Part shown: piece after piece, positions 21,915 through 54,932 of the stretch
How positions within the stretch are numbered: position 1 is the first letter of the stretch
Layout of the letters: every line of letters begins with the position of its first letter
Source: Chloroflexota bacterium
Lineage (GTDB): Bacteria > Chloroflexota > Anaerolineae > UBA4142 > SHND01
Assembly: GCA_016209205.1 (NCBI GenBank)
Contig: JACQWQ010000042.1
Span: 13,917 to 77,916, forward strand
Direction: 5' to 3'
Length of the DNA: 64,000 bases
Translations under genes and position numbers: made by a program
Notes under the pieces: generated by a model
Database searches by the model: none
Told to the model about the DNA's origin: nothing
Seen by the model: only the letters and a program-made list of their open reading frames with translations

Positions 21915-21916
21915 TT

Positions 21917-23410
21917 TCACATCACCATGAGGACCAGATTTGGAATGAACATATAACACAGCCCCGCAGCGAACAACAGAATTGCCAAATAATAAGTTAT
22001 CTTGATGAGATGCGCGCCTTCGCTGGCGACGATGGCAAACGCGCTAATGACGGCGAGAATCAAAATCATGCCAATGACCAGCATCCCCAAAAATTCCACT
22101 TGCGGCGCATTGAAATTGAACATATTGCCCAAGCCGAGCGCCGCCGCGGACGCGCCGCCTTCTTCCAATTCTTTAGCCGCTTCCGTCAGCTTGAGCGCGA
22201 ATTGCCCCAAGATGCCGAGCAAGAAAATCATTAATCCCGACATGACCGTGTGCATGACAATGACGAGCCACGAAAACGTTGCCGCCACACCGCGCCGCTG
22301 CTGCCGCAGCATTGCCGTGCGCATCGAATACTCGCTGGTGAGCTTGCCGATGCGCTCCGGGTCGCCGCCCAGATTGATTGCTTCGTAAAAAATACCAATC
22401 ACTTGCTGCACGAGTTTGCTGCCGGTTTCAGCCCCAAAACGTTCCCAACACAGTCGCGGTTTACCGAATGCCTTGAGGCGCAAATCCAATTTGTGAATGT
22501 CGGGCTCGAGCGCGGGAAACGAATCTATCTTGATGCTTGCCAACGCTTCTGTCAACGTCGTGCCGCGCGAAGTTGCCGTACCGCCAAGTGAGCGCAGGAA
22601 CGAACTAATCTCGTCATCTTTGCGCACCGTCTCTTTGTCCGCGCGTCGCGCCGTCCAACCGACGGGGAGAAGCAGCGCAGCGGAAGCCAGCAGCACGTAC
22701 GTTTTGTCCATCTTGAGCGCCAACAACAGCAGCGCGGTCATGATCGCGAGGGGCACGAGGACGAAAAACAATTTACGCGCGCGTCGCTGGGCTGCCGACC
22801 CGAGGAGGAGCGGCACGCTGATTTGATCGGGCGGCGACGCGCGCAAAAGGACCCACGCGACGCCGAAACTCGCCGCCACCGCAATCATCACCATTAACAG
22901 CATGGTCGAAAGCTCGATGTTGTAAATCATCGTCGCGACCATGTTGATGATTACAATGAGCGCGGAGGAAACGGTCACCGCCGCGTACGCGTCGTTCCAT
23001 TTTTTCAGACTCTCCAAACTGCGCGTGTAATCATTCGTGTACGCTTCACCCATCACACTGGCTTCGCGTTGCAAAAAACCGGGCAGCGGTTCGCCGGAGC
23101 GCAGCGCGTCGGACAAACGCAAGAGAAAGGTTTTGACCAAATCGGGCTTGGCGGTTTCGCCGATGAGGCGCACCGCGTCGGGATAGTTGTAGCGCAAATT
23201 TTCGGCGACCTGATGGATATTGTGGAAAAAACGCGCCGGGGGACACGCCAGCTCGCGCGCGAGTTGAAACGTGCGCGCCCGCGAGATTCCGGCAGCCGCC
23301 GTCGCAGACATGTACGTCAACTGCTGAAAGAGGTCATAGCTCGTAATCTCTTCAAAATAATTTCTAATTCGATTGTTGGATGTTGCGGCTACCGTTGCCA
23401 TCGCCATCAC
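21917..23410 (-). CDS. arlJ: Archaellum membrane platform ArlJ (FlaJ)
   Basis: T2SSF-like repeats: DLFQQLTYMSATAAAGISR, LLRLSDALRSGEPL, SFLRSLGG, FYEAINLGGDPERIG; multiple TMs; follows arlI. Confidence 0.88.
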   Translation of the reverse strand: MMAMATVAATSNNRIRNYFEEITSYDLFQQLTYMSATAAAGISRARTFQLARELACPPARFFHNIHQVAENLRYNYPDAVRLIGETAKPDLVKTFLLRLSDALRSGEPLPGFLQREASVMGEAYTNDYTRSLESLKKWNDAYAAVTVSSALIVIINMVATMIYNIELSTMLLMVMIAVAASFGVAWVLLRASPPDQISVPLLLGSAAQRRARKLFFVLVPLAIMTALLLLALKMDKTYVLLASAALLLPVGWTARRADKETVRKDDEISSFLRSLGGTATSRGTTLTEALASIKIDSFPALEPDIHKLDLRLKAFGKPRLCWERFGAETGSKLVQQVIGIFYEAINLGGDPERIGKLTSEYSMRTAMLRQQRRGVAATFSWLVIVMHTVMSGLMIFLLGILGQFALKLTEAAKELEEGGASAAALGLGNMFNFNAPQVEFLGMLVIGMILILAVISAFAIVASEGAHLIKITYYLAILLFAAGLCYMFIPNLVLMVM

Positions 23411-25263: not shown

Positions 25264-26334
25264 CTAACCCTTGACTTTGTTGATTGGAATCACGCGAATG
25301 CCCCACCCCGGCTCTACTTCAAAACTCACGATGTTGCCGGTCGTTTGTTCTGCGCCGCGCACTTTGGTCACTTCAAGCGTTTTCACCAATTTGTTGCCGA
25401 CTTCTTCGGTGCGCAGCTGCAAATGCGCGTCACACAAGGAACGGATGCGCGTGAGCAATTCGCGCGTCAGCCCGTGCGAATGCACGATTGCAATCACCGT
25501 CGTGCCATCGCCGCACAAACGTTTGCCCTCTTCAAAAAAACCGAGCACTTCTTTGTCCGACGATTGCGGAATGGAAGAGGTCAGCGAATCAATGAAAATC
25601 ATATTGCGCCCTTTTTCGCGTTTCATCGCGTTGATGAGCACCGTCGGCGCATGTTTGCCTAGCCGCGATGTTTCAATCGGATAAATGTGCAAATGGTCGA
25701 GCAGCAAATAATCCAAAATGTCGAGATTGAGAGAGCGCATTTGTTTGACCAAACTCTTGACCGAGTTTTCACTTGTAAAGAGGGAGAGTTTGTACCCATC
25801 CATCAAACAGCCGTGCATCATTTGCTGCGCGAGCACTGATTTTCCCGCGCCCGAATCGCCTTCGATAAGCGTGAGCGACCCCATGGGCACACCGCCGCCC
25901 ATCTTGTTGTCGAGATCGGGATTGCCGGTCGAAATCAGTTTCGCATTGTCGTCTTCCGGGCTGATGAGCAGCGGCTTGACTTTGCTGATGAGTTCGACGG
26001 GGTTGAACGGCTTGATGAGATAATCATCCACCGCCGATTTTGGTCCAATCTCGAGATTTTCAAGTTGATTCTCGTCGGCAATCATCAAAATGCGCTCATG
26101 GCTCGTCGCGGGATCTTTGTGCAGTGTTTTGGCAATGTCGTTACCCTTGGCGGTGGGCAGTTTGAAATCGAGAATCACCAGATTGGGTTGTTCACGACGC
26201 GCCAGCATCAGACCTTCTTTGCCATCAGCCGCCGCGAGAACGGTATAGCCGTCCTCTTCCAACGGATATTTGAGGAGCTGTACGAGTTGTGCGTCGCCTT
26301 CGATCAACAAAATCTTTTTAGTTTTGCCAGCCAT
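25264..26334 (-). CDS. arlH: Receiver domain fused to ArlH (FlaH, KaiC-like ATPase)
   Basis: N-terminal ~125 aa REC (LLIEGD, LVILDFKLP, DDYLIKPF), then ISTGNPDLDNKMGGGVP, GDSGAGKS, IFIDSLT, RIRSLCDAHLQL, LEVTKVRGA, FEVEPGWGI. Confidence 0.9.
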   Translation of the reverse strand: MAGKTKKILLIEGDAQLVQLLKYPLEEDGYTVLAAADGKEGLMLARREQPNLVILDFKLPTAKGNDIAKTLHKDPATSHERILMIADENQLENLEIGPKSAVDDYLIKPFNPVELISKVKPLLISPEDDNAKLISTGNPDLDNKMGGGVPMGSLTLIEGDSGAGKSVLAQQMMHGCLMDGYKLSLFTSENSVKSLVKQMRSLNLDILDYLLLDHLHIYPIETSRLGKHAPTVLINAMKREKGRNMIFIDSLTSSIPQSSDKEVLGFFEEGKRLCGDGTTVIAIVHSHGLTRELLTRIRSLCDAHLQLRTEEVGNKLVKTLEVTKVRGAEQTTGNIVSFEVEPGWGIRVIPINKVKG

Positions 26335-38426: not shown

Positions 38427-38939
38427 TCAATGCGTAAAGGTCACAGCCGCCGCCACGCCGTTCGGCGTAACCAACGTAAAACGATTCGTCGAACCAGCCG
38501 CAATCGCCGGGGAAAGATTGACCGTCACCAGCAGGTCTTCGCCGGGATTGAGCAAATTCGGATCAAAGACTTCGGGAACGCTCGCGCCGGCGTCTTGATA
38601 AATCTCTGCCGTCCATTCATTCACTTGTGTGCCGTACGGGAACCAACGCACCTGAGTCGTTACCCCATCGGCATATTCCACAATCACGTCCCAACGCGCA
38701 AAATCGGCGAGACGCGTCGCGCCGGAATTTCTCACCGTCACCTGCAAAATCTCGCCTGTCGGATCAACCGCAACGTTGGTCGGCGTGAGGATGGTGCGAA
38801 CACGTTCGCCTTCCCGTTCTTGCAGCGCGAGCGACGCGTCTGTCAAAGCGGCTTGCGCCGAGAGCGCACGGTCCGAGAGTCCCAAAATCGCAAGCATCAT
38901 GACGCCGATGATAATGAGCGCCGTAATTGCCGTTTCCAT
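38427..38939 (-). CDS. arlF: ArlF (FlaF)-like archaellum stator protein
   Basis: N-terminal TM, VTVRNSG...WDVIV, LNPGE, VTPNGV pattern; located after arlG. Confidence 0.72.
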   Translation of the reverse strand: METAITALIIIGVMMLAILGLSDRALSAQAALTDASLALQEREGERVRTILTPTNVAVDPTGEILQVTVRNSGATRLADFARWDVIVEYADGVTTQVRWFPYGTQVNEWTAEIYQDAGASVPEVFDPNLLNPGEDLLVTVNLSPAIAAGSTNRFTLVTPNGVAAAVTFTH

Positions 38940-39271: not shown

Positions 39272-39551
39272 TAAAGATGAAATTGCCTTCTGGACCAAAA
39301 AACAAATCGGAACTTGCCACTGGTTTGATCGGGAGTGCGCCGATATTCTTTGCCCAAATCACGACCTCTGCGCCTGAATTGGTCGCATGAATGATTTCGA
39401 CCTGGGTCTTGATGCGTTCGTCATAGCGCCCCTGCATGTTGGCAATCGCCTCGCCGCTTTGCGTGATGGCGGGAAAAATAGAATTAAAGACAAACACCGC
39501 CGAAATCACCCCGGCCATGACGAGTAACGCCGTCACAATCGTCTTATCCAA
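39258..39551 (-). pseudogene. arlG: ArlG (FlaG)-like protein, 3'-truncated
   Basis: GAGGAGG RBS + TTG start; TM helix, RIKTQVEII, WAKNIG, DLFFGPEG; stop lies inside the MITE and no downstream continuation is visible. Confidence 0.7.
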
Positions 39552-40278: not shown

Positions 40279-43200
40279 TCAGTGCAGGCCTGACTGCGCG
40301 CGCAACAGCGCTACCAGTTTTTGGATGGACGGAACCTCTTCGCTGGGCGCGGTGCGCATGGCAATCTGTGCGGCGCTGAGCGCCTTTGGGAAATCCCCGG
40401 TTTGTTGATAGAGCAATGCCAGGTTCGTGTGCGCCTCCCACTGATACGACGAGTTGGGCGCCAGTTCGATATAGTTCCTGTACTCTTGAATAGCTTGAGC
40501 AAACATCCCTTGTCGATAGTACACAAACGCCAATTTGCTGTGCGCCTCTGCGAATTGGGGCTGCAAAGCAACCGCTTGCTGGTACGCTTCACTCGCTTTG
40601 GCGAAATCCTTTTTCGTCGCGTATGCCTTGCCTAAATACAAATAGGTTTCAGCAAGTTTGTTGTCGCGCGCGCGCGACTCGCCCAATTTCTGCAGCGCGG
40701 CATCGGAATCGTTGCCATAGACCAAATCAAAGTCAGCTACTTCGTTCCACAAGCGCGCGTCGTTCGGGTTGAGGCGAATGGCTTGGCTATAGAGTTGCCC
40801 GGCGCGCTCGACAAGTTGGGTTTTAGCCGGCGTGTTGACTGGTAATTCGGGAAGGTATAACCGCGCCAGATTAAGGGTGTGATCCACGTACAAGGGGTTG
40901 AGCTCGCGCGCGCGCAAAAGCATCGCCTGCGCCGCATAAAGCAAATCTGTGCGACCTAACGCGGTGATCGCGCGCGGGTCCAACAAGAGGACTTGTTCGA
41001 CAGAAATCTGCGCGTCGTATGCGGCATTAGCGGCGTGGCGCGGTGTCGCATTCGCGCTCGCCGTGTTGGCTTTTTCCACAAGTGCTCTGCCCAGCACCCG
41101 ATAGTATTGATCCGCCGCGGGTGACAGGTGCAGCGCGCGCTGTCCAATCACAATTGCCGCGTCCTGCCGCCCTTGATCCGCGAACGTTTTACCCAGCCGA
41201 TAAGCCATGTCGCTGCGGGTCGGGTTCAGGTCAAAGAGCGTGACCCACATTCCGGTCACAACGATCAGCGGGACAAGGGCTGCCAAGGACCACTTGTTGG
41301 CAATCCGGGGCATCGTCGCCGCCCCGGACTCGATGGCGATACCAATAGCCGTGCACAGGATTAGCGCCGAGGCGCTCACCATAAAGTAATCCACCACGCC
41401 GACTGTTCGATCAAAAAAAATGAGCGCGTCGGGCGTGCTGATGCCCGATCTTGGAATGGAGGCGAGCGTAGAGAGCTGAAGCGCCAAGCCCAACCCAAAA
41501 CAAATCGCCAACCCCGCTGAGAGCGCGGCAACCCACATCAAGCCACGGCGTCCATCTCCCTGAAAGCTGAGTATTCGGGCGCGGAGCATTTCGGACCAGA
41601 CAACCAAAGTAGACAGCAGCCACACCACCGCGAGCAGAGCCAGCACGACGTACGAAGTTATTCCGAGCACTGGGTTAAAAGAGAGGGCTTGCCACAAAAT
41701 TCCTGGCGCGTCGGTTGTGCCCTCTCGAATCGTCACGAACTCAAAAATCAAGATCGCCAGAATGAGGGCAACGATCAGGGCATAACTCGAAACGGAACCG
41801 ATCCATGTTGGAACGCGGGACAGGGATCGCGCGGCTTGTAGATGCGGGATAGAGATCCGATCAAATTGCAGCCGCTTGGCGACGACGACCAGCATTCCGG
41901 CAAATATCCAAAACAGCGTTTGCGTCGCGATCATATTGGGACCAAATTGACTTTCGATATAGTGCGCAACCAAGCCAGCCAGTAACGCAGCGAGCAAAAT
42001 TTGCTGGGGGCGATGCGTCATCGCGGGTGGCGCGTCCTGCCGCAACGCAAACCACGCGAGGTAAAGCGATACCGCCGCAAGATTGCTCGCGGGCAAAATC
42101 AGACCAAGATATTTGGCTTGATTCAAGAGCAGCGCGCCCAGCCCACCGCTCAACATCAGAGCGACCCACAGTCCGACGAACAAATTGCGCGTGCGGTTTG
42201 TCGGCGCCAACCCCAAGCCGCGCAGCGCCAACCCGAAAAGGCACAGCCATAGAAATTGATGCGCGCCAAAACCCCCCAAACCGGTCGTCACCAGAATGTC
42301 CCACGTCTCGTTGTGACTTCGATCGGTTTGCAACAGCGGACTGTACGGATCAGGCAAAGCGAGTTGGCGATAGATGAGCACTAACGTATCCGCGCCATAC
42401 CCGACGAGGGGTCGGACTACGTTCAGCGAATCTGGCGCGCCCATAGGAAATTGAATCGGTGCGTGCGGCAGGACAAGGCGCGCCACATTCTCCCAAGTGT
42501 ATAAACGAAATCCGGCAGTGCTGTCTGCCAACTGTCCCAATCTGCCGAATCCGGGCAGCGTGCGCAATCCTTGGAGTGGTGTATTTGGCAAGTTGAAAAT
42601 GAGCAAAAATGCGAGTCCGGCAAAACCCAAGCCGATGGCGCCCAACACCATCCGCCGCCGCCCCAAGACGAGCGCCAAGCACAAAAGAAAGAACACCATT
42701 CCACCGAACATTCCCAACCAGGGGCCGCGGCTGCCTGACAGAAAAATCGCAACGAACTGCGCGATGGCGATCACACTGTAACTCGCCGCGCGCGAAATGT
42801 CGGCAGCGCGCGTGTCCGCCTCTTTTTCGATCAAACAAGAGCGCAGCGCGATGACAATCTGTCCGAGTGTGAGCGCAAAGACCATGATCAGATAGCCAGC
42901 CAGGAAAATCGGATTGCCCAGCTGTGCGCCCACGCGTCCGTCGAATTCTACGGTCCACGCCAACGGATCGAGACCACTGCGCTGGAGGATGCTGTAGAGC
43001 GCAATCGGGAAACTGGGGAGAATGATCGCGGCGATCAGCCGGTCGAGTTGTTGGCGCGTGCGTAGCCCTTGCGCCAGCATCACAAACATGACCACGTAAG
43101 TAAGGAATCCGTGCAAGCCCAGCGGGCGCAGGTACGAACCAAAGAGCGCGGTGTGCAGATCAATCGCGGTGAGGGTGGTGAGCAAATACATGCCGACAAG

Positions 43201-43461
43201 GAGCAAGACCGCGAGCGCCAGCGGCGAGTGCAGCGGTAGCGGCGCTTGGGTACGCCGTACGCGGCGCTCCTCAAGCCACTTGACAAGCCACATTGCCACC
43301 ATAGTGACGGCAAGCATGCGCAAAATCGCGAGTTTGCCTTCGTGCATCACCGCGCTCGTATAGCCGTTAAAGAACAAGGGCGCGAGTACAACCGCAGCGA
43401 GCCATTCCGCTTCAATGATTTTGTCGCAGACCACGCTCAATTTACTTGTCACTGGACCCAC
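40279..43461 (-). CDS. O-antigen ligase / O-oligosaccharyltransferase-like membrane protein with C-terminal TPRs
   Basis: GNPIFLAGY, SGSRGPWLG, RSHNETWD Wzy_C-type motifs; many TMs; TPR tail (AETYLYLGKAY, AEAHSKLAFVY). Confidence 0.8.
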   Translation of the reverse strand: MGPVTSKLSVVCDKIIEAEWLAAVVLAPLFFNGYTSAVMHEGKLAILRMLAVTMVAMWLVKWLEERRVRRTQAPLPLHSPLALAVLLLVGMYLLTTLTAIDLHTALFGSYLRPLGLHGFLTYVVMFVMLAQGLRTRQQLDRLIAAIILPSFPIALYSILQRSGLDPLAWTVEFDGRVGAQLGNPIFLAGYLIMVFALTLGQIVIALRSCLIEKEADTRAADISRAASYSVIAIAQFVAIFLSGSRGPWLGMFGGMVFFLLCLALVLGRRRMVLGAIGLGFAGLAFLLIFNLPNTPLQGLRTLPGFGRLGQLADSTAGFRLYTWENVARLVLPHAPIQFPMGAPDSLNVVRPLVGYGADTLVLIYRQLALPDPYSPLLQTDRSHNETWDILVTTGLGGFGAHQFLWLCLFGLALRGLGLAPTNRTRNLFVGLWVALMLSGGLGALLLNQAKYLGLILPASNLAAVSLYLAWFALRQDAPPAMTHRPQQILLAALLAGLVAHYIESQFGPNMIATQTLFWIFAGMLVVVAKRLQFDRISIPHLQAARSLSRVPTWIGSVSSYALIVALILAILIFEFVTIREGTTDAPGILWQALSFNPVLGITSYVVLALLAVVWLLSTLVVWSEMLRARILSFQGDGRRGLMWVAALSAGLAICFGLGLALQLSTLASIPRSGISTPDALIFFDRTVGVVDYFMVSASALILCTAIGIAIESGAATMPRIANKWSLAALVPLIVVTGMWVTLFDLNPTRSDMAYRLGKTFADQGRQDAAIVIGQRALHLSPAADQYYRVLGRALVEKANTASANATPRHAANAAYDAQISVEQVLLLDPRAITALGRTDLLYAAQAMLLRARELNPLYVDHTLNLARLYLPELPVNTPAKTQLVERAGQLYSQAIRLNPNDARLWNEVADFDLVYGNDSDAALQKLGESRARDNKLAETYLYLGKAYATKKDFAKASEAYQQAVALQPQFAEAHSKLAFVYYRQGMFAQAIQEYRNYIELAPNSSYQWEAHTNLALLYQQTGDFPKALSAAQIAMRTAPSEEVPSIQKLVALLRAQSGLH

Positions 43462-43598: not shown

Positions 43599-44249
43599 CT
43601 ATTGGAGATCCATTACATCTTCGAGCGTGGGCGGGGTCAGGCGTTGCAGAATCAGGACTGCCCCTGACGGCGGTTTGACTTCCACGTTGAACGACGTGTT
43701 CTCGGCAAGTGGGTTTTCCAAGGCGGCAGTGCTGTCCAGCGGGACCCAGACTTTGAACAATTCGCGGTCTTCGAGCATGTTATTGCCGTCCGAGTAGCCG
43801 ATCGAGCAGACGTTCCAGGTCGTGATCAAAACGTTTTGTGTCGAGTCACGGGCCGAAATATTAATCACGTTGCCGGGCGGAACAGCCGGCACGGTCACCA
43901 CGTTATCCGCCGCAGTGGTTGTGCAAGCTGCAATCGTTGCACCACTGGGAGGGGTAAAGTCAATCGGCTGACCACCGGCGACATTGGCCAGCGTGAAAGA
44001 AACACCATCCACTTCTGCGCCCGCCGATGAAAAGGCAATGACGCTGCCCTTGAGTTCCACCGAACCGCGCACTTGCGCCAAACCGGAGAACGCGGCTTCT
44101 TTGCTGCGCTCGGTCATGAACGTGCCAGTGCTCAAAATCGTAAAGGCAAACACGGCTGCGACCACGACGAATGCAATCAAAATGATTGCGGTTTCCAATG
44201 CGGTGACGCCGCGTTCGTCCTTGTACCATTGTGCAAACATGTTTTTCAT
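43599..44249 (-). CDS. arlB: Archaellin ArlB (FlaB)
   Basis: AAGGAG RBS; class III signal peptide KDERG|VTALETAIILIAFVVVAAVFAF, the archaellin N-terminal signature with Glu at +5. Confidence 0.95.
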   Translation of the reverse strand: MKNMFAQWYKDERGVTALETAIILIAFVVVAAVFAFTILSTGTFMTERSKEAAFSGLAQVRGSVELKGSVIAFSSAGAEVDGVSFTLANVAGGQPIDFTPPSGATIAACTTTAADNVVTVPAVPPGNVINISARDSTQNVLITTWNVCSIGYSDGNNMLEDRELFKVWVPLDSTAALENPLAENTSFNVEVKPPSGAVLILQRLTPPTLEDVMDLQ

Positions 44250-45681: not shown

Positions 45682-46479
45682 TCAAGTCGCCGCAAAGTAA
45701 TAGCCGCGCCCCCGCACCGTATGAATCAATTTCGGCGCGTCGGGCGACGGTTCCAATTTTTGGCGCAGTCGGAAAATGCTCGAACGAATGACGCTCTCGA
45801 CCGTCCACTTGTCCATTCCGTTGTAACCCAACGCGACATGCGCCAATTGCGCGCACGTCAGCACATGATTTGGTTTTTCCATCAACGCGCTCAGCAGCGC
45901 CACTTCGCCTTCGGTCAATTCCACGGCGAGCGGCGGCTTGGTCTGGAGCGTCGCCACGCGCTTTTCACGGTCCAACTCAAGCCAACCCAATTGCCTCTCG
46001 TCCACCGGTTCGGCGGCAGGCGGTTCGGGCTCGCTCTCCAATTCGGACATGACGTTGCGCACCATCGCCAACAAATGTTCCTGCCGCGCTTGCCGGGCGC
46101 GCATTTCGAGCGCGCGGCCCACCGAACGAACCAAGTCCGCGTCGGGACACGGCTTGAGCAAATAATCGAAAACGTTCGCGTGAATTGCCGCAATCGTGCT
46201 GTCAATCGTCGGATGCGCGGTGAGCACGATAATGAGCAGCGCCGGATCGAGCGCGCGCGCGCGCTGCAACAGCTCGCGTTCGTTCATGCCGAGATGAAAC
46301 GGGTCAAGGAGCAAGAGTGCATACTTGCGCGAGTGTAAACATTGCAGCAGCTCGGCGCCGGAAGAGGCCTGGTCAATTTCATGGCCGTGCTCGCGCAGCG
46401 CGTGCACACAAACACCGCGCACCGGATTATCTGCATCGGCGATCAAAAATCGGGATTCAAGGAAAGCAGTAGATGGCAT
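45682..46479 (-). CDS. OmpR/PhoB-family response regulator
   Basis: REC (LLLLDP, DYLLKP) plus winged helix (LTEGEVALL, IFRLRQKLE, IHTVRGRGY). ATG 46479 preferred. Confidence 0.88.
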   Translation of the reverse strand: MPSTAFLESRFLIADADNPVRGVCVHALREHGHEIDQASSGAELLQCLHSRKYALLLLDPFHLGMNERELLQRARALDPALLIIVLTAHPTIDSTIAAIHANVFDYLLKPCPDADLVRSVGRALEMRARQARQEHLLAMVRNVMSELESEPEPPAAEPVDERQLGWLELDREKRVATLQTKPPLAVELTEGEVALLSALMEKPNHVLTCAQLAHVALGYNGMDKWTVESVIRSSIFRLRQKLEPSPDAPKLIHTVRGRGYYFAAT

Positions 46480-46823
46480 AGTCGCGCTGTAGGTTGATTG
46501 CCAAACTTGCACCAGTCTAGCCCATGCCAGAGGCGCAAACAATTGGGGCACATACGTATTTCAAATTCGTACACGTACTGATTTTTCCGGCGCTGCACAA
46601 CCCGATTTTTCACAGTTTTGGCGGCTGTACGCGCATAAACCCTTAAAGGTCTGGGCCGACTGCATCGGGTCTGGATGAAATCCGTACGGGTATGCTTTGA
46701 TTTCCGTACTTGACCTGATTGTTTCACCAGGGCTTGTTCGCTACACTGCTCTCATCAGCGTTCCGTAATTTGATGCGCCGGGCGAACTCGTGCTGCGCGC
46801 ATCAGGATAGATGAGGCACAGCG

Positions 46824-47228
46824 ATGAATAATTTGGTCAAACCGGTCCCCCCAACGTTGGAGGCGCGACGCGTCGAAATGGATTCCACATGGAGTGTCCC
46901 TCCGACACTGCAATCGTACGACCCGACTTGGGCGAATCAACAATCCCTTCGCCCGTCGCAGTATATTGTGGTAGACACGCCGCCGCTTCCCCAAACAATG
47001 TCGGGCCCGTTCGAACTGATGGCGCGTTCGATGCAAAACATTTTTCAAATGCAAATGGCGATGCTGCGCCAACTCGACGTGCGCCTGAATCGTCTGGAGC
47101 AGACACGCCCGCCGCAATTCAATACGGGAGAGTTTTACGCGCAAACGTGGTGGGCGCTGTGGGGTATCTTGATGTTGATTCTCGGCGCGGCGTTGGTGAT
47201 GGTTTTGACTTTGATTCTTCGGGGATGA
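46824..47228 (+). CDS. Hypothetical protein with C-terminal transmembrane helix
   Basis: 134 aa; short coiled coil, then WWALWGILMLILGAALVMVLTLIL; ends 9 nt before the next gene. Confidence 0.65.
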   Translation: MNNLVKPVPPTLEARRVEMDSTWSVPPTLQSYDPTWANQQSLRPSQYIVVDTPPLPQTMSGPFELMARSMQNIFQMQMAMLRQLDVRLNRLEQTRPPQFNTGEFYAQTWWALWGILMLILGAALVMVLTLILRG

Positions 47229-47237
47229 GCGGGAGCC

Positions 47238-49373
47238 ATGCGCGCCAATTCTGCCAAGTCAAGTCACACCCCGCGCCACGCGTTCAATTTGCGAACGCTC
47301 CGCGAGGCGGTCCAACATATTCCGCGTCGCACTTTGGTCTTGTGGCTGTTGGCAACGACATTGGGTTTGTTCATGCTGCCGTTGACCCTTGTCGCTGCAT
47401 CGCTGACCGCCCAAGTCAGCACACTCAACGACGATGTGCAAGCCGTCATCGCAGCCGAAACAACGCTGCCCACGCTTTTGCCGCGCGTGCAGTCGCTCAA
47501 CAAACAACTGGCGCAAGTACAAGCGCAGGCGAAACAACTTCAGGCGGTGAAACCTACTCTGGCCGCGGGTGCGCTCGACTGGACCACCATCATGTCCGCC
47601 ATCGGCAACTATGATCCGAATCAAATCGCGGTAGATGGTTTGAGCACAAGCGACGAGATGTTGATTGTAACCGGACGCGCTGCAAATGACGCGGCGATTC
47701 TCGCGTACGTAAATTCATTGCAGCAATCAAACACCTTTAAAAATGTTGTGCTGCAATCCGTTCAAATCGCCGACTCGCAAGCCGTGACCATGACCGTCGT
47801 GCCCGGGCAGGTGTTTCCAACCGCCACCCTGACGCCGACGGCGACGATTACGCCAACGCCGAACCTGCGCGACGCGTACGAGCCGGACGAAATCACGCCG
47901 CCTTATTATTATCTGGGGCAGACCCAAATCCACACGTTCCATCCTGACAACGATATTGACCAAGTTGTCTTTCTTGCCAAAGCGGGGCGTTATTATCGCA
48001 TCGCCACACAGAATCTCGCCGCAGGCGTGGATACGGTCTTGAGTGTCAATGCCGGCGGGCACATTCTCACGAATGACGATGCGAAACCCACATCCCTGTA
48101 TTCCGAAGTCATTCTCGTCGCGCCAACGACCGATACGACTGTGACCATCACGATCACCAATCGTGGACCGTATGGCATAACGACCACATACACATTGGTG
48201 GTAGAAGAAATTTTGCCGACGCCCGTGCCGACCGGTTCGGCGACACTGTTGAGTTCGCAGCCCACCGCCGCCGCGCCAATCCGAACTACACAGCCAACGT
48301 CCACATCCGCTCCAACACACACAGCGGCGCCGCCGACCAGCACACAAATTCCGCCGACCAATACGCTCGCGCCGACGAATACTCCAATTCCAAGCGTCCC
48401 ACCGTCGCCGACGCCGCTCCCACCGACGAGTACTGCAACGTTCGCCCCAACGTTCACCTCCATCCCACCGACGAGCACGCCGATTCCGCCTACCGAAACG
48501 CCAGTGCCGCCCACGATTCCGCCAACGCCCAGCTTTGCCGTCGTAAGCGCAAACTTTCAAGTCACGCCGTCGTCGAGTTCCGTGTGTCCCAGTACGTTTT
48601 CGTTCAACGGCGCAATCACCGTCATGGGCACGGGCACGGTCACGTATTTTTTTGAACGCAGCGACGGGTCAATGGGTCCGCAGCAGTCCATCCCGTTTGC
48701 GGGCGGCGGCACGGCGAACATCGCCGACGCGTGGACGATTCAAGGGACGCCGGGTTTCAATTTTTCGGGATGGGAACGCATTCATGTCCTTGCGCCGAAC
48801 GAGCTTGCATCGAATCCTGCAACGTTTCTTTTGATCTGTCAGCCCGAACCTGCGCCGACAACCTCGGCGCTGTCCTTTCCACTCAGTCACTCTGTCATTT
48901 CGAGATACCCATCAAGCCCGGGCGTGATGTTTAATGTCAGAAACTTTATCAACGCGAATCCCGCGAATCCATGCGAATCTACGCGAAATGTTTTGAATTC
49001 TGACAGATTCGCCAAGATTCGCGCAGATTCGTGTTCCCTTCCGATAATTCAATCGGCGCGCTGGAAGTTTCTGTGCAGCTCTTCATGCTTCAGGGTAAAC
49101 TCCGCGAGAAATCACGATGCCATTCAGAGTAGTTACACGTTTTCTTTTGGAAACGCGCGCGGGGTGTGGTTTGAACGCGCCCTGGATTCTTTTGACATCT
49201 TGGGCGGCGCCGTAAATGTTTTGTGGCTGCGACGCGCATTGTTCGCGCCGCAGACAACGCGCCAGCTCTTCGACGCTTGGCGCGGCAACGCGCCCGTGTC
49301 TGCGCCGAACACCGCACAAGCGATGCCGCTGCGCTTTGTGATCGTGCTCGAGCCCAAGACAGGCACGCCATGA
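47238..49373 (+). CDS. PilN-like protein with PPC-like domain, Pro/Thr linker and Ig-like domain
   Basis: TM + coiled coil + PilN-like core (WTTIMSAI...LIVTGRA...AYVNSLQQSNTFKNVVL), DAYEPD motif, PT repeats, terminal strand LRFVIVLE. Confidence 0.72.
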   Translation: MRANSAKSSHTPRHAFNLRTLREAVQHIPRRTLVLWLLATTLGLFMLPLTLVAASLTAQVSTLNDDVQAVIAAETTLPTLLPRVQSLNKQLAQVQAQAKQLQAVKPTLAAGALDWTTIMSAIGNYDPNQIAVDGLSTSDEMLIVTGRAANDAAILAYVNSLQQSNTFKNVVLQSVQIADSQAVTMTVVPGQVFPTATLTPTATITPTPNLRDAYEPDEITPPYYYLGQTQIHTFHPDNDIDQVVFLAKAGRYYRIATQNLAAGVDTVLSVNAGGHILTNDDAKPTSLYSEVILVAPTTDTTVTITITNRGPYGITTTYTLVVEEILPTPVPTGSATLLSSQPTAAAPIRTTQPTSTSAPTHTAAPPTSTQIPPTNTLAPTNTPIPSVPPSPTPLPPTSTATFAPTFTSIPPTSTPIPPTETPVPPTIPPTPSFAVVSANFQVTPSSSSVCPSTFSFNGAITVMGTGTVTYFFERSDGSMGPQQSIPFAGGGTANIADAWTIQGTPGFNFSGWERIHVLAPNELASNPATFLLICQPEPAPTTSALSFPLSHSVISRYPSSPGVMFNVRNFINANPANPCESTRNVLNSDRFAKIRADSCSLPIIQSARWKFLCSSSCFRVNSARNHDAIQSSYTFSFGNARGVWFERALDSFDILGGAVNVLWLRRALFAPQTTRQLFDAWRGNAPVSAPNTAQAMPLRFVIVLEPKTGTP
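48893..49113. mobile_element. Family C element fragment inserted in frame in the PilN-like gene
   Basis: Starts TGTCATTTCGAGAT; shares GGGCGTGATGTTT, AATCGG...GGAAGTTTCTGTGCAG and CGCGAATC modules with 18943 and 44521. Confidence 0.72.
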
Positions 49374-50458
49374 ACACTGTCATGCGTACGCTGCGAGATC
49401 TATGGCAGAGATTGCGCTTGCCGCAATTACGGACGCGCCTGCCGCATTTCCCCTTTCAACGCGGGTCAGCCATCGCATTCCTCTTGCTCGCAGTATCCAC
49501 GTTCGGCAACGCGTGGCTCATCACCGCGCTCGTCTTGCCCACGTTCGAAACGCGCAGTAAGTTGGCGGAGCAATTACAAACCGAGCAGCGCAATCTCATC
49601 GCCGCGCGCGATTTGCGCGAAGACTCGCCCGAGACTATCGAAAAACGCATCGCCTCCAATCAAGCCATCGTGCAGCAGGCGCAAAAGCAGCTGCTCGCGA
49701 ATGACCAGCTCACGGCGCTTGCCAACGCGGTGTATCAACACGCGAACACGAGCGGTATTGCCCTGACCGAATTGGCGGTGAGCGGCGGACCCGCAGAAGC
49801 GAGCGTTTTGAAATTCAATTCAACGCCTACGCGCACGCCGACGCTTGCGGGCAGTGGCGTCAAGCCCACGACCAAACCGATTGCTACCTCGCGCGCATTG
49901 ACCACGACACGCGCAGTGACAGCAACAGTGAGCGCCACCGCGACCGCGCTGCCTTTGCTGTATCAGATTCGCCGCCTGCATCTACAGGCACAAGGCGCCA
50001 CGCAGCGTTTGATCAATTTCATGGCGCGTTTGCGCGAGTTCCAGACATCGGGCGTCGTCGTCGAAACGCTGACCATGACCGGGAAAGCAGAGTGGGCAAC
50101 TTTGACGCTCAAACTCGCGCTCTATGTGGATCCCGCCGCGCCTGCAAAATTACCTCCGGTACAAACTATTAAAAACATCACAACGCCGCTGCCGCCGCAA
50201 ACTGCAAGCCCCGCATTTGCCGCGCCCCTGCAAACGCCCACCCCGTACGTCATTATCGTCCCGTACGGCAACGCGGGTGTTATGCCGACGCTCACGCCTA
50301 CTCCCGAACGGCTGTACGTGTATTATGTGCAAAGCGGAGACACGCTCAGCACACTCGCGCAAAAATTTCATGTGCCCGCGCAAGAGATCGTCAACCGCAA
50401 TGCGCTTACCATTCTCGAACTCACGCCGGGACAAAAATTACTCATCCCCGTTCGCTAG
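49370..50458 (+). CDS. PilO-like protein with C-terminal LysM domain
   Basis: TM + coiled coil + PilO-like strands; LysM YYVQSGDTLSTLAQKF...IVNRN...LTPGQKLLIP; overlaps the previous stop (ATGA). Confidence 0.75.
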   Translation: MNTVMRTLRDLWQRLRLPQLRTRLPHFPFQRGSAIAFLLLAVSTFGNAWLITALVLPTFETRSKLAEQLQTEQRNLIAARDLREDSPETIEKRIASNQAIVQQAQKQLLANDQLTALANAVYQHANTSGIALTELAVSGGPAEASVLKFNSTPTRTPTLAGSGVKPTTKPIATSRALTTTRAVTATVSATATALPLLYQIRRLHLQAQGATQRLINFMARLREFQTSGVVVETLTMTGKAEWATLTLKLALYVDPAAPAKLPPVQTIKNITTPLPPQTASPAFAAPLQTPTPYVIIVPYGNAGVMPTLTPTPERLYVYYVQSGDTLSTLAQKFHVPAQEIVNRNALTILELTPGQKLLIPVR

Positions 50459-50756
50459 TGCGCCCATCCCCCTCCAGTACGGTATCAAAATCCACGAAGG
50501 ACACGGCAATCGCTTGTGATTGCCGCAATCGCAAGCGATTGCGGCACTAAGAAACCCTTCGTGTTCTTCGTGTCCTTCGTGGATAACGCGGTTCCCCGCG
50601 CGCCGCGCGCACACAAATTGTTTCTAATTTGTAATCGTCGCGCGCACCATTTTGAATCTATGATGTCAAGTGGTTGCTGCCTTCACATCGGAAAGTGGCA
50701 ATATCTGGTGTGTTCGCATCCCGGCAGGCGAACATCGGATTCCGGAAATTTCAGTA

Positions 50757-53700
50757 ATGAAGCCAACCTTTTCGATTCGCTTGCTATTGTTTCTTTTCGC
50801 CATTTCGGTGACCGTACCGTTGGTCATCTTGCTAGTCTATACCCTGTACTCGGCCGTCATTACCAAAACCCAAAATGCGCGTGTGAGCGCCGTCGGGCTG
50901 GCGCAAGCTGCCGCCAACGATGTCACAATTTTCCTCAACGGCGTTGAACTCCACTTGACCAGTATTGCGGAACGGTCTGAAATCCGCGTCGCGCTCCAAG
51001 ACCCCCTGACCTGTTCCCGCACCCTGCAAATCCTGCAATACTCGCTCCCCGAAGCATCTTTTTTTGTCGTTCTGGATGAACAAGGGAAACCGATTTGCAC
51101 GATCCTCGCGAATGATTTAACACAATTTCCCTTCTCGGCTCAGCCGTGGTTTTCGGCGGCGCGCGATGGTAATCAAGTGATCGTTACCGCGCCGCAAAGC
51201 GGACTCGTGCCGGATAGAAACATTTTGCTGTTGGCATATCCGCTCCAAGCCCCGGGCGAAACAAAACAGGGCATCGTGTTAGCAGGCGTTGACCCCGCGC
51301 AGCTGCAAACGGTTCTCACTCACCAGCAACTGAATCCAGAAGAAATTCTCGTGCTCTTGGACGGCGAAGGCACGCTCCTGGCGTTGACCCCGGATCCGAG
51401 CCAGCTCTCGGGCACAAATTTGCGGACGGCAGAATTTGTGCAGACCGCGCTATCCCAAATTCAAGGGAATGTGCAAACGCGCGGCTTGGATGGGACCGAA
51501 CGGATTTTTGGCTTTACGACCGTACCGCAAACGGGCTGGCGCGTGATTGCGGGCGTACCCACCGGTTCCGCTTTTGCCTCGGCGTGGCAATACGCGATGA
51601 TTAACGGGACTTTGCTGTTGATTGCCATTCTCTTGGTGGCTGCTGCGGCGCGTTGGTACACCAAGCGCATCGAGCGTCCCCTCAATGCGTTGGTCGAAGC
51701 GACCACTGCGGTGACGCAAGGCGATCTCACCACGCGCGTTTCGGTTCAGGGTCCACCGGAATTGGCGCAGCTCGCCGTTCAATTTAATGCGATGGTAGAC
51801 GCGCGCGAGGCATTCGACAAGGCGTTGCGTTTGGCAAATGACAAATACCGCACGCTTATCGAGCAACTCCCGGCGGTGGTCTATCGCACCTTGCCCGACA
51901 AGGGGAACCGCGCGTTGTTTGTCAATGCCGTGATTCAGGATTTGTTGGGCTATGCGCCGGAAGAATGGATGGCAAACCCGGGGCTTTGGTCGGAGCACAT
52001 TCATCCCGAAGACCGTGCGCGCGTGGCTGCCGCGCTCGCCCAATCCTCCACCCTGAATCAGCCCCTGACGGTCGAGTACCGGTTGTTTACGCGCGATGGT
52101 CGTCTCGTTTGGGTGCGTGACCAAGCCCGCGCCCTGCCGCATCACAACGGGCAGCCGCGCATGTTGCAGGGAATCGTCTTTGATATTACCTCACACAAAC
52201 TCGCCGACGAACGCATGGCGTATCTCGCGCAGCTGCTGGATCAAGTACACGATGCGATCATTGCGACCGATGCCGAACATAAAATCACGGCGTGGAATCG
52301 CGCGGCGCAAGAAATGTATGGTTGGCAGGCGACGGAAGCCCTCGGACAACCGCTTGACAAAATTGTAGCGACCGAAATCACGGCGCAAACCAAAACCGCG
52401 TTGGAGGAAACCTTACAGGCAGAGGGGGCGTGCCGCTTTGAAGTAGAACAATATCGCAAGACCGGCGAACCTTTGTTCGTGGAAAGCACGACGATGATGC
52501 TGCGCAATCACGCGCAAGAAATCACGGGTTACGTCAGTGTGAATCGCGACATGACCGCGCACCAACACGCCGAACAGAAATTGGAGCGACGCACCGCGCA
52601 CGCCGAAGCATTGGCGCACACGGCGGCGGCATTGAACGCGCGTTTGGAATTTGATGCGGTGGTGCGTGCGATTGCGTCCGAGACGGCGCGCGCTTTAAAG
52701 GTCCCGCTCGCGTTTGTGTTTCTATACAAAGAGAACTCGAATTCGTTCCGGCTCGCCGCTGCCTTTGGCTTGAGTGAATCCTGCACCGCAGCCCTCATGG
52801 AAATTCCGTACGTCTATCCCATTGCCCTCGACAGCCCACCGACGCTGTATAGCCGCAATTGGGCCTCGCTGGCCATGTGGTCGAATGCGGGGCGCGGTGA
52901 GATGCCGCGCTTGACCGGCGCATTGACGGTACCGTTGCGCCACAAAGACGAATGGGTCGGACTCGTCAGCGCGGCGACGACAGACCAGACGCGTCCGTTT
53001 ACGACCGAAGATTCGGAGCTGCTCGCGGGATTGGCAGACCAAGCCGCATTGGCCGTGGCGAACGCGCGCTTGTTCGACCAAGTGCGCGCCGGGCGGCAGC
53101 GTTTACAGACCCTGTCGCGTCGGCTGGTCGAGGTTCAGGAAACAGAACGGCACGCGATTGCACGCGAGCTGCACGACGAAATCGGTCAGTCGCTCACGGG
53201 GTTGAGTCTGGTGCTGGAGATGGCAGCGCGCGCTTTGCCGCATGGCGTCAACGTGAATCTCGCCGAGGCGCAATCTATCGTGAATCAAATCATGAAACAG
53301 GTGCGCAATCTTTCGCTCGAATTGCGCCCGGCGATGCTGGACGATTTGGGATTGGTGCCTGCGCTGACCTGGCAAGTCCAGCGTTACTCGACGCAAACGG
53401 GTATCCATGTAGATTTGAAATTGATGGGGCTGGAAGGCAAACGCTTTCCGACCGCCGTGGAAACGGCCGCGTATCGCATTGTGCAGGAAGCATTGACGAA
53501 TATCGCGCGCTATGCGCGTGTGCAGCACGCCAAGGTACGCGTGTGGACCGAGGACCATACCTTGGGCTTGATGATTGAAGACGCGGGCATTGGTTTCGAG
53601 GCGGACGCGGCATTGAGCAGCAATCAATCGAGTGGTTTGATCGGCATGCGCGAACGCGCCATGCTGCTCGGCGGGCACTTTGTGCTCGAATCGGCGCCCG

Positions 53701-53777
53701 GGCAAGGCACGCGCGTCAACGCCAAATTGCCCTTGCGCGATTTCGTCGAGCGCCGCGTCAGGGAGCGAGCATTATGA
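50757..53777 (+). CDS. Sensor histidine kinase (Cache, HAMP, 2 PAS, GAF, HisKA_3, HATPase)
   Basis: TM-Cache-TM, IHPEDR PAS, WNRAAQEMYGW PAS, ERHAIARELHDEIGQ, EDAGIGF, GLIGMRER. ATG 50757 preferred. Confidence 0.92.
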   Translation: MKPTFSIRLLLFLFAISVTVPLVILLVYTLYSAVITKTQNARVSAVGLAQAAANDVTIFLNGVELHLTSIAERSEIRVALQDPLTCSRTLQILQYSLPEASFFVVLDEQGKPICTILANDLTQFPFSAQPWFSAARDGNQVIVTAPQSGLVPDRNILLLAYPLQAPGETKQGIVLAGVDPAQLQTVLTHQQLNPEEILVLLDGEGTLLALTPDPSQLSGTNLRTAEFVQTALSQIQGNVQTRGLDGTERIFGFTTVPQTGWRVIAGVPTGSAFASAWQYAMINGTLLLIAILLVAAAARWYTKRIERPLNALVEATTAVTQGDLTTRVSVQGPPELAQLAVQFNAMVDAREAFDKALRLANDKYRTLIEQLPAVVYRTLPDKGNRALFVNAVIQDLLGYAPEEWMANPGLWSEHIHPEDRARVAAALAQSSTLNQPLTVEYRLFTRDGRLVWVRDQARALPHHNGQPRMLQGIVFDITSHKLADERMAYLAQLLDQVHDAIIATDAEHKITAWNRAAQEMYGWQATEALGQPLDKIVATEITAQTKTALEETLQAEGACRFEVEQYRKTGEPLFVESTTMMLRNHAQEITGYVSVNRDMTAHQHAEQKLERRTAHAEALAHTAAALNARLEFDAVVRAIASETARALKVPLAFVFLYKENSNSFRLAAAFGLSESCTAALMEIPYVYPIALDSPPTLYSRNWASLAMWSNAGRGEMPRLTGALTVPLRHKDEWVGLVSAATTDQTRPFTTEDSELLAGLADQAALAVANARLFDQVRAGRQRLQTLSRRLVEVQETERHAIARELHDEIGQSLTGLSLVLEMAARALPHGVNVNLAEAQSIVNQIMKQVRNLSLELRPAMLDDLGLVPALTWQVQRYSTQTGIHVDLKLMGLEGKRFPTAVETAAYRIVQEALTNIARYARVQHAKVRVWTEDHTLGLMIEDAGIGFEADAALSSNQSSGLIGMRERAMLLGGHFVLESAPGQGTRVNAKLPLRDFVERRVRERAL

Positions 53778-54421
53778 TTCGGATTGTATTGGTAGACGAC
53801 CATCACGTGGTCCGCCAAGGTTTCAAAGCATTGCTTGAATCGGAAGGCGATTTGCAGGTCGTCGGCGAAGCCGGGGATGGCTTGCACGCGTTAGAGCTCG
53901 TGCAGCGTTTGTCACCGAATATCGTGATTGCGGATGTGATGATGCCGGGGATGAATGGCTTGGAATTGACGCGCCAGCTCCAGACGCTTGCACCGCAGAC
54001 GCGTGTGATTCTGCTTTCGATGCATTCCAATGAAGCGTACGTGTTGGAGGCGCTGCGCAACGGCGCGGCGGGTTACGTGTTGAAAGATTCGAATGCGTCC
54101 GATTTGATTCAAGCGGTGCGCAAAGTCGCCGCCGGGGGCAGGCACTTGAGCGAGCCGCTGTCGGAACGAGCGATTCAAGCGTACGCGCAAATGGCGCAAG
54201 ACGCCCACTTTGACGCGTACGAGACTTTGACGAATCGCGAACGCATGATTTTGCAGCTCGCCGCCGAGGGTTATTCCGGGTCTGAAATCGCACAGCGGCT
54301 CACGATCAGCGCGCGGACAGTGGAGACGCATCGGAGCAATTTAATGCACAAACTAGGGCTGCATTCGCAAACGGAATTGGTGCGTTACGCCATGCGGCGC
54401 GGCATTTTGGCGATGGAATGA
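53774..54421 (+). CDS. NarL/LuxR-family response regulator
   Basis: VDDHHVVRQG, ADVMMP, YVLK, LTNRE...TVETHRSNLMHKL. Confidence 0.94.
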   Translation: MIRIVLVDDHHVVRQGFKALLESEGDLQVVGEAGDGLHALELVQRLSPNIVIADVMMPGMNGLELTRQLQTLAPQTRVILLSMHSNEAYVLEALRNGAAGYVLKDSNASDLIQAVRKVAAGGRHLSEPLSERAIQAYAQMAQDAHFDAYETLTNRERMILQLAAEGYSGSEIAQRLTISARTVETHRSNLMHKLGLHSQTELVRYAMRRGILAME

Positions 54422-54433
54422 CTCGCCTGCTGC

Positions 54434-54474
54434 AACCACGCCCCGTATTCAAAAATACGGGGCGTGGTTTTTTC
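54434..54474 (+). terminator. Rho-independent terminator
   Basis: AACCACGCCCCGTATT-caaa-AATACGGGGCGTGGTT followed by a T-run. Confidence 0.8.
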
Positions 54475-54554
54475 TAAATCCGTACGCGTACGCATAGCCC
54501 AGTGACGCCAGAACGGCTATGCTATACACCAATGTAGGGACTTGCGGAGGGAGT

Positions 54555-54932
54555 ATGGGACCCATCGGGATTGTGTTGGTGGATAATCATGCGGGTTTGG
54601 CGCGCATTGCGCGGCGTTTTATTCAGCAAGATCAAGAACTTGCCGTACTCGGCACCACACCAAATACGGACGTGCTTGACTTTGTCGTCCAGCGACAACC
54701 TGAAGTCGTCGTCATGGATCTGGACATATCGGATCCGTCAGTGCTCGATACGATTGCCTTGCTGCGCCTGCACCTACCGCAGCTGCATATTATTGCGCTG
54801 ACCTTGTTTGATCTAGAAAGTTATCGTCAAGCCGCGCTCGATGCGGGCGCGGATGCGTTCGTGACCAAAGAAACGCTCTATGCGGACCTCGTGCCGTGCA
54901 TTCGTCGCATCGCGCGCGCGGTCGAGTGCTGA
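54555..54932 (+). CDS. Single-domain response regulator
   Basis: GGAGGGAG RBS; VLVDNH, VVMDLD, AGADAFVTK. Confidence 0.85.
   Translation: MGPIGIVLVDNHAGLARIARRFIQQDQELAVLGTTPNTDVLDFVVQRQPEVVVMDLDISDPSVLDTIALLRLHLPQLHIIALTLFDLESYRQAALDAGADAFVTKETLYADLVPCIRRIARAVEC

Follow-up and report, generated by a model that had tools for sequence, protein, structure and literature searches.

A pilN and pilO-LysM gene pair beside the archaellum cluster of an Anaerolineae bacterium, very probably recruited from type IV pili

How is an archaeal-derived rotary motor held in a peptidoglycan-walled cell? This mechanical question is open for bacterial archaella, and a motor without a brace against the wall cannot deliver torque. 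We analysed a locus that raises it, a three-gene operon (g1, g2 and g3) beside the archaellum (arl) genes of a Chloroflexota bacterium of the class Anaerolineae (GCA_016209205.1). The operon lies in a stretch of 64,000 nucleotides, hereafter the window (contig JACQWQ010000042.1, positions 13,917 to 77,916), and all positions are those of the window unless another contig or locus is named. The initial annotation had described an operon divergent from the arl cluster that encodes a PilN-like protein with extracellular domains and a PilO-like protein ending in LysM, and had proposed that bacterial type IV pilus alignment proteins were recruited to anchor or guide the archaellum through the peptidoglycan wall. 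Open reading frames (ORFs) and Pfam scans confirmed the layout as follows.

46824..47228, + strand: g1, first gene of the operon, 134 amino acids (aa), from ORF and sequence
47238..49373, + strand: g2, PilN-like, 711 aa, Pfam PilN match of 25.7 bits
49370..50458, + strand: g3, PilO-like with terminal LysM, 362 aa

The three co-directional genes are divergent from the archaellum/chemotaxis supercluster on the − strand. The ATG of g3 (49370) overlaps the g2 stop codon as ATGA, and the longest g3 ORF starts at 49223.

The idea of recruitment is already in print for Litorilinea aerophila. pilN and pilO-LysM were found near its arl locus and anchoring was suggested (Sivabalasarma et al. 2025, Nat Microbiol, PMC12488501), and exaptation of PilN/PilO as an alignment scaffold through peptidoglycan was subsequently proposed (Sivabalasarma et al. 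2026, Front Microbiol, PMC13319060). In the latter study, of the 244 archaellated genomes in a BLASTP census, 34 had pilN together with pilO and just three had pilO-LysM near arl, and a single tomogram of L. aerophila contained extra density under the filament entry point. The published answer rested on gene neighbourhood in three genomes and that one tomogram. The comparative support added here consists of near-perfect co-occurrence within the class, joint loss with arl, the presence of arl-linked and pilus-linked paralogues within the same genome, and erosion of the PilM-binding motif. From these sequence comparisons we conclude that pilN and pilO-LysM have very probably been recruited into the archaellum motor.

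Co-occurrence and synteny of pilN and pilO with archaellum genes

In a sample of 401 genomes drawn evenly from the Anaerolineae, profile searches detected archaellin in 26 genomes and the PilN module in 56. The module was present in 25 of the 26 arl-positive genomes, which span 21 genera, versus 31 of the 375 arl-negative genomes (odds ratio 277, Fisher p 4e-23). The single arl-positive genome without it carries PilM beside arlB in a fragmented assembly. PilM was found in 26 of the 31 arl-negative genomes with the PilN module, which therefore look like carriers of ordinary type IV pili; among the five PilM-less ones, one (G531) has ArlF/G homologues adjoining pilN-pilO. The pair was kept in all 21 arl-positive genomes without PilM and was found in none of 10 arl-negative genomes of the same genus, family or order, and three congeneric species have neither arl nor the pair. 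These counts indicate that the pair is not equally common in genomes without arl genes; equal frequency was the result that the initial annotation had named as refuting its proposal. A phylum-wide co-occurrence, in which seven of eight arl-positive genomes had a PilN hit, was dropped as confounded, since in seven arl-positive genomes outside the class PilN lies beside PilM, or in one frame with it, and these were counted as ordinary pili.

Synteny across the class, which the initial annotation had suggested examining, likewise placed the pair beside arl genes. pilN-pilO lies directly 3′ of arlH-arlI-arlJ, a conserved hypothetical gene and, in part of the cases, the prepilin peptidase gene at no fewer than 13 independent loci, and the block arlH-arlI-arlJ-hypothetical-peptidase followed by pilN-pilO is syntenic in L010, L016, L019, L020, L023–L025, L029 and L040–L042. 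The pair was located within or beside the arl cluster in the window and in L003, L005, L008, L010, L016, L019, L020, L023–L025, L029, L032, L033, L035 and L040–L042. In the window, L003 and L005, it is divergent beside arlB, and this arrangement, with the kinase and regulator downstream, recurs in orthologous operons whose g3 products are 58% and 37% identical to that of the window. Distant PilN homologues occur in a second context, in which pilN-pilO is accompanied by a LysM protein, PilM, a peptidase and PilB/PilC; this pilus cluster adjoins the arl cluster in L012 and L022. Taken together, the co-occurrence, the synteny and the paralogue split described below support, at the level of comparative genomics, the recruitment that had been proposed from the window, and we consider a functional linkage of the pair to the archaellum likely.

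An archaellum-linked PilN/PilO lineage without PilM

The pair could in principle belong to a type IV pilus encoded elsewhere in the genome, as the initial annotation had allowed. In the assembly (6.38 Mb, 94% complete, draft in 279 contigs), neither whole-genome searches nor tblastn queries from a complete Chloroflexota pilus cluster detected PilM, PilB, PilC, pilins or DUF7305 proteins, which leaves no pilus system to which the pair could belong. The lack of pilM, pilB and pilC, previously noted for the surroundings of the operon, thus holds genome-wide (the genome-wide searches did not extend to secretin, PilP or PilQ). The single PF11104 (PilM_2) hit was rejected as PilM, since its sequence is EutJ-like by inspection and tblastn recovered no PilM. 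The only T2SSE-type ATPases of the genome are ArlI and the CpaF of a Tad/Flp pilus locus (contig C105:3576-9162; CpaB-like, REC-TadZ-like, CpaF, TadB and TadC), which is the only other type IV filament system of the genome. Four other PilM-less genomes (G401, G403, G406 and G407) similarly have only ArlI and CpaF-type ATPases and no PilC.

Two genomes, G744 (loci L033 and L034) and G726 (L035 and L036), each carry two complete pilN-pilO pairs. In both, one pair encodes a shorter PilN/PilO and follows arlHIJ, and the other encodes a longer PilN/PilO and is accompanied by LysM-PilM-peptidase-PilB. A maximum-likelihood tree built from the PilN module placed the pilus-linked copies in one clade (support 98/93), which includes L013 with the canonical motif, and grouped the arl-linked copies of G744 and G726 together elsewhere (99/98). 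Because the tree is unrooted, it is compatible with a single origin of the arl-linked copies and does not prove one.

The PilM-binding motif FIDVNILPEQYRPR was intact in all five PilM-positive loci and eroded in every PilM-less locus. In g2 of the window it reads AFNLRTLREA, which does not match the canonical INLLP-type peptide. Conservation is retained in the transmembrane (TM) segment, the core, the PPC domain and the C-terminal strand. Relative to L003, the ratio of nonsynonymous to synonymous substitution rates (dN/dS) was 0.26 for g1, 0.24 for g2 and 0.29 for g3; ArlI and ArlH gave 0.06, the ArlF/G-like gene 0.15 and ArlB 0.17, all of these values being rough because dS is near 1. g1 to g3 are under purifying selection.

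Domain architecture of the operon products and their neighbours

The PilN-like assignment of g2 and its extracellular domains were both substantiated, by a Pfam match and by PPC-like and immunoglobulin (Ig)-like domains in an AlphaFold2 model built on 40 homologues. Full-length g2 scored 25.7 bits against Pfam PilN (PF05137; cut-off 22.8), and about 90 homologues were found in Chloroflexota. The model consists of a TM helix, a coiled coil, an alpha-beta-beta-alpha-beta core, a PPC-like sandwich, a Thr/Pro linker, an Ig-like sandwich, a long disordered stretch and a short C-terminal strand, and these parts are encoded as follows.

47238..47777, + strand: residues 1-180, cytoplasmic peptide with degenerate PilM-binding motif, TM helix, coiled coil and PilN core
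47859..48218, + strand: residues 208-327, PPC/collagen-binding-domain-like beta-sandwich (predicted local distance difference test score, pLDDT, about 90; Foldseek)
48525..48842, + strand: residues 430-535, Cys-containing Ig-like beta-sandwich after the Thr/Pro-rich linker (pLDDT 88-96)
48885..49121, no strand assigned: dispersed-repeat insertion inside g2, in frame, an extra segment of approximately residues 549-640
49323..49361, + strand: C-terminal strand MPLRFVIVLEPK, proposed fourth strand of the PilN core

The N-terminal elements of the model are helices 30-75, 82-109 and 115-122, strands 130-138 and 141-148, helix 151-163 and strand 167-177, with a core pLDDT of 82-96. Foldseek matched the PPC-like domain to the collagen-binding domain of ColG (1nqj, 2o8o and 1nqd; TMt 0.76-0.81) and to the PPC domain of a collagenase (5sv5); across the PilN family this domain occurs in one to three tandem copies. 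The Ig-like domain is kept in the sub-clade of the window, and three tandem paralogous copies of it lie on contig C136. The inserted repeat is about 240 nucleotides long, gives 128 blastn hits across the genome, and folds into a long hairpin (z = -3.6). It adds about 92 aa without a stop codon, leaves the C-terminal strand in frame, has a model pLDDT of about 30, and is missing in all orthologues (a gap of about 92 aa in the five aligned).

The position of the fourth core strand appears to be filled by the extreme C-terminus of g2, after about 500 inserted residues, as judged from model and sequence. In the model, strand 698-706 (pLDDT 75-82) is surrounded by disorder, and the motif (V/L)(E/R)FVI(V/I)LE(L/P)K stands at the extreme C-terminus of most of 91 g2 homologues. 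When core and C-terminal strand were joined in silico, the score against Pfam PilN increased by 1.3-3.6 bits in four of four pairs (for g2, 29.7 bits for the core alone and 31.8 bits with the strand), and the end of the match moved from about 60-62 to 74-76 of 78 profile positions in three of the four pairs and from 61 to 65 in the fourth. Since the match became longer and higher-scoring, we read PilN here as a domain that appears to be split, with the outer PPC and Ig modules inserted before its last beta-strand.

The product of g3 was confirmed as a PilO-like protein ending in LysM, the LysM by Pfam and the PilO part by fold match and family alignment. Its relevant parts are the following two.

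49703..50128, + strand: residues 112-253, PilO-type ferredoxin-like core, split by a Thr/Pro-rich insert (residues 142-195)
50321..50449, + strand: residues 318-360, LysM domain (Pfam PF01476; LysM structures in Foldseek at a root-mean-square deviation of about 1 Å)

The LysM match reached 41.2 bits (cut-off 20.9) over profile positions 1-43 of 43. The g3 sequence gave no hit to Pfam PilO (PF04350) at E<=1, and a PDB sequence search with the PilO-family profile returned coiled-coil noise only. The g3 model (pLDDT 72-82 in the core, 58.7 overall) matched PilO structures in Foldseek with probability 1.00 (3jc8_Oa, E 9e-4; 2rjz, E 1.4e-3; 5uvr), as well as PulM and Amuc_1100, and its core comprises helix 112-128, strands 131-138 and 199-209, helix 211-223 and strands 229-238 and 243-253. 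In addition, HHalign aligned the g3 family with the Chloroflexota PilO-TPR-LysM family with a probability of 99.8% (E 1e-28), the Thr/Pro insert being looped out, and two members of the latter family (L006 and L014) pass the Pfam PilO cut-off (22.7 versus 22).

LysM was found in 16 of 19 arl-linked PilO partners; L008 truly lacks it, and the other two frames end at a contig edge (16 of 17 complete frames). It is also fused to PilO in the pilus-linked loci L018, L021, L022 and L036 and is encoded by a separate adjacent gene in L012 and L034. LysM as an archaellum-specific adaptation was therefore rejected, since PilM/PilB-linked pilus paralogues of the class carry it too. Judging from this distribution, LysM on PilO is an ancestral trait of the pilus systems of the clade, and it would explain the wall attachment of the Anaerolineae alignment complex in general.

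The product of g1 is tail-anchored by a single C-terminal TM helix, is Pro-rich in its N-terminal part and contains a coiled-coil segment; it matched no Pfam family at E<=1. Its 17 homologues are all without annotation, and it lies upstream of g2 only in the sub-clade of the window (L003 and L005). A paralogue with 37% identity and the same C-terminal TM helix sits upstream of a membrane-anchored HEAT-repeat/BNR-like protein on contig C1 (C1:14367-14843, − strand), so that g1 belongs to a small family not confined to the arl region.

The supercluster spans 20368-46551 on the − strand (Pfam scans of the larger ORFs). Its order is prepilin peptidase, conserved hypothetical gene, arlJ, arlI and receiver (REC)-arlH; response regulators with a hybrid kinase, cheB, cheA, a methyl-accepting chemotaxis protein gene, cheW, cheR and a second cheW; an ArlF/G-like gene, a 233-aa hypothetical gene and a 1060-aa Wzy_C-TPR gene; and finally arlB, a 181-aa hypothetical gene and an OmpR-type regulator. 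The divergent neighbours of the operon are the OmpR-type regulator (45682-46551) and arlB. The archaellum genes and the genes 3′ of the operon are listed below.

20368-20913, − strand: prepilin peptidase (Pfam)
20910-21959, − strand: conserved hypothetical gene between arlJ and the peptidase gene
21917-23410, − strand: arlJ (Pfam)
23494-25179, − strand: arlI (Pfam)
25264-26334, − strand: REC-arlH (Pfam)
38427..38939, − strand: ArlF/ArlG-like protein, 170 aa (Pfam Arch_flagellin 32 bits; FlaF_Ig-like weak)
39276..39551, − strand: truncated ArlG-like gene, residues 1-92 of a 152-aa orthologue only
43599..44249, − strand: arlB (archaellin; Pfam Arch_flagellin 86 bits), 2.6 kb from g1
50670..54421, + strand: Cache-HAMP-PAS-GAF-HisKA_3 kinase and LuxR-type response regulator, 3′ of g3 (Pfam)

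ArlF and ArlG are S-layer-binding, archaellin-derived Ig-fold proteins. With the 152-aa protein of L003 as query, tblastn gave 74% identity to the truncated ArlG-like gene over residues 1-92 and nothing beyond; one stator component may thus be non-functional in this genome, or the truncation may be an assembly effect. The 1060-aa protein (40279-43461, − strand), which combines an O-antigen-ligase-like Wzy_C domain with TPR, lies between arlB and the arlF/G region and is missing from the same position in the compact relatives L003 and L005; such a gene is consistent with the report of an O-glycosylated filament in L. aerophila. A conserved protein of about 312-349 aa without family assignment is encoded between arlJ and the prepilin peptidase gene (20910-21959 in the window, 8285-9235 in L010, 7941-8879 in L006); it lies directly upstream of pilN-pilO in most relatives and is a further candidate for the membrane module. 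A single-domain receiver follows the kinase and the LuxR-type regulator, and the whole stretch (50670-54932) has the same order in L003/L004 and L005; its products may be regulators of the operon or of the arl genes. Just 3′ of g3 lies a palindrome resembling repetitive extragenic palindromic elements, GGCAATCGCTTGTGATTGCCGCAATCGCAAGCGATTGCGGC, at 50505-50545. A promoter and terminator scan of the operon was uninformative, with one promoter-like site versus 2.2 expected.

Proposed role of the pair, alternatives and known systems

The explanation that we favour, and regard as fairly probable as a whole, is that g2 and g3 would form a pair dedicated to the archaellum and paralogous to PilN and PilO, the type IV pilus alignment proteins of Chloroflexota, and would serve as a peptidoglycan-tethered collar. 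Both proteins are predicted to be bitopic, each combining a TM helix and a coiled coil with a ferredoxin-like core. They would most likely pair as PilN-PilO heterodimers that surround ArlJ, the platform protein homologous to PilC. A tether to peptidoglycan would come from the LysM at the C-terminus of PilO, and the PPC-like and Ig-like domains of PilN, apparently inserted in the core fold, could extend further into the multilayered envelope. The pair would thereby provide a wall-fixed collar for a horizontally acquired rotary motor, helping the filament and the ArlF/G stator to cross the peptidoglycan and to withstand the reaction torque. The PilN-PilO dimer, its contact with ArlJ, ArlF or ArlG, its binding of peptidoglycan and the choice among anchoring, guidance and placement are steps that we infer, and our confidence in the specific role as a tethered collar or anchor is moderate.

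With regard to its origin, the Anaerolineae arl cluster may at first have adjoined, or shared its prepilin peptidase with, a PilB-PilC-PilM-PilN-PilO(-LysM) pilus cluster. pilN-pilO would then have been duplicated, with one copy becoming attached to arlHIJ. Pilus genes including PilM would later have been lost in most lineages, and the PilM-binding peptide of the arl-linked PilN would have decayed. We give about even chances to a fuller statement, according to which the arl-linked pair, far from being peculiar to Litorilinea, is a distinct orthologous lineage that split from the pilus-linked paralogues, is near-universal in Anaerolineae archaella, contributes bacterial-specific subunits of a chimeric motor that replace or supplement S-layer anchoring, and has a PilN that is a split domain.

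Several observations weigh against the archaellum-dedicated collar. Contact of the pair with Arl proteins and its binding of peptidoglycan are putative, and the LysM domain, being common to the pilus-linked paralogues, is not evidence for an adaptation specific to the archaellum. The genomes behind the odds ratio are not phylogenetically independent, and the four remaining genomes with the PilN module and without archaellin or PilM are all metagenome-assembled genomes at most 92% complete. The dN/dS of g1 to g3 is two to four times that of the core arl genes, and quantitative reverse-transcription PCR in L. aerophila gave low expression of the pilN and pilO-LysM genes (PMC12488501). One Anaerolineae genome (G402, loci L006/L015; GCA_041300525.1, a 5.2-Mb scaffold) carries arlJ-hypothetical-peptidase-pilN-pilO-LysM without ArlI, a clear ArlB or PilM, and has PilB-PilC-PilT 160 kb from the pair. 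Its gene set suggests that the pair may also serve, or survive with, a pilus, and the genome is either an intermediate or a counter-example. Finally, the genome of the window itself carries both the ArlG-like truncation and the repeat insertion in g2; together with the three congeners that lack arl, these suggest that the local system may be decaying.

The last observation leads to the first of three alternatives, namely that the archaellum system of this genome, including the pair, is degenerating and non-functional whatever its ancestral role. Only 92 of 152 residues remain in the ArlG-like gene, about 92 aa are inserted in g2, and arl and the pair are absent from three congeneric species. 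However, the insertion is in frame, lies where the model is disordered and leaves the C-terminal strand in place; ArlB, ArlH, ArlI, ArlJ, g1 and g3 are intact, and repeats in this draft of 279 contigs may have produced an assembly artefact. We consider this alternative unlikely.

It is quite unlikely that the pair serves another envelope machine or process, such as the Tad pilus, the prepilin peptidase, polar wall remodelling or a polar landmark, with its position beside arl being only regulatory or positional. The genome does have a Tad locus, CpaF-like ATPases occur in all PilM-less genomes examined, the pair usually follows a peptidase gene and is kept in G402 without ArlI or ArlB, and LysM and PPC domains are generic binders of wall or matrix. 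On the other hand, tad genes never adjoin the pair at any locus read, the window has it at the arlB end with 26 kb between it and the peptidase gene, and its co-occurrence is with archaellin (Tad was not scored in the arl-negative relatives).

Least likely is that the pair is an evolutionary relic of a pilus cluster that once adjoined arl, kept by linkage or polarity without any archaellum role: adjacent pilus and arl clusters in L012 and L022, the decaying PilM-binding motif, dN/dS above that of the arl core genes, low expression seen for L. aerophila as well as the repeat insertion in g2 would fit a relic, but the reading frames are intact at a dN/dS of about 0.25, the extracytoplasmic domains and C-terminal strand are conserved, the pair is kept in 21 of 21 PilM-less arl-positive genomes and 25 of 26 arl-positive genomes of 21 genera, it is lost together with arl in 10 of 10 close relatives, and G744 and G726 keep the arl-linked pair despite a pilus-linked one.

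The archaellum-dedicated collar is best judged against known systems, the closest of which is L. aerophila. It shares with the window the gene pair, the LysM fusion, the place beside the arl genes and the absence of pilM; L. aerophila lacks pilP and pilQ too. The window ArlB has 9i5h as its best PDB match (136 bits) but is not identical to the archaellin of that solved filament, so that the organism is a relative of, and not the same strain as, the one from which the filament was solved. Whereas the association was rare in the published census, our profile searches found it in 25 of 26 arl-positive Anaerolineae species genomes, mostly right after arlHIJ. Beyond the published work, the present comparison therefore points to a much more general association, to an arl-linked pair that forms a paralogue lineage of its own, to motif decay that accompanies PilM loss, and to a PilN that is apparently split. 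It also singles out the LysM domain, the PPC and Ig modules and the C-terminal strand as the parts to mutate.

The type IVa pilus alignment subcomplex PilM-PilN-PilO-PilP (Pseudomonas aeruginosa, Myxococcus xanthus and Thermus thermophilus; 3jc8, 2rjz and 5uvr) has in common with the window the bitopic topology, coiled coil and ferredoxin-like cores, and in both cases pilN and pilO are adjacent and translationally coupled, in line with the PilN Pfam match and the PilO fold match. Unlike these pili, the genome of the window lacks PilM, PilB and PilC, only pilO adjoins pilN, the INLLP-type motif has been eroded, PPC-like and Ig-like domains precede what appears to be the last core strand of PilN, and PilO carries LysM and a Thr/Pro insert in its core. 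GspL and GspM of type II secretion likewise share the PilN/PilO-type ferredoxin-like fold and bitopic topology, and the C-terminal domain of PulM is among the fold matches of g3; they differ in having no outer domains and no LysM, and the genome of the window has no type II secretion genes.

For wall attachment, TsaP of type IV pili uses LysM and MotB uses an OmpA-like domain for peptidoglycan anchoring. Together with ArlF/ArlG, these proteins follow the same logic, in which a rotary or extrusive machine is fixed to a rigid layer of the wall. MotB and TsaP are nevertheless unrelated in sequence to PilO, ArlF/G is still encoded in the window, and the anchoring role of g3 is a putative one. A further likeness comes from Helicobacter pylori, in which homologues of PilM, PilN and PilO reportedly form a cage around the flagellar motor (Liu et al. 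2024, as cited in PMC13319060). That cage surrounds a bacterial flagellum in a diderm cell, retains PilM and has no LysM, but it sets a precedent in which alignment proteins of pili were exapted to form a scaffold around a rotary motility motor. The pair in the window would illustrate concretely how, following transfer between domains, components of two homologous type IV filament machines came to be recombined.

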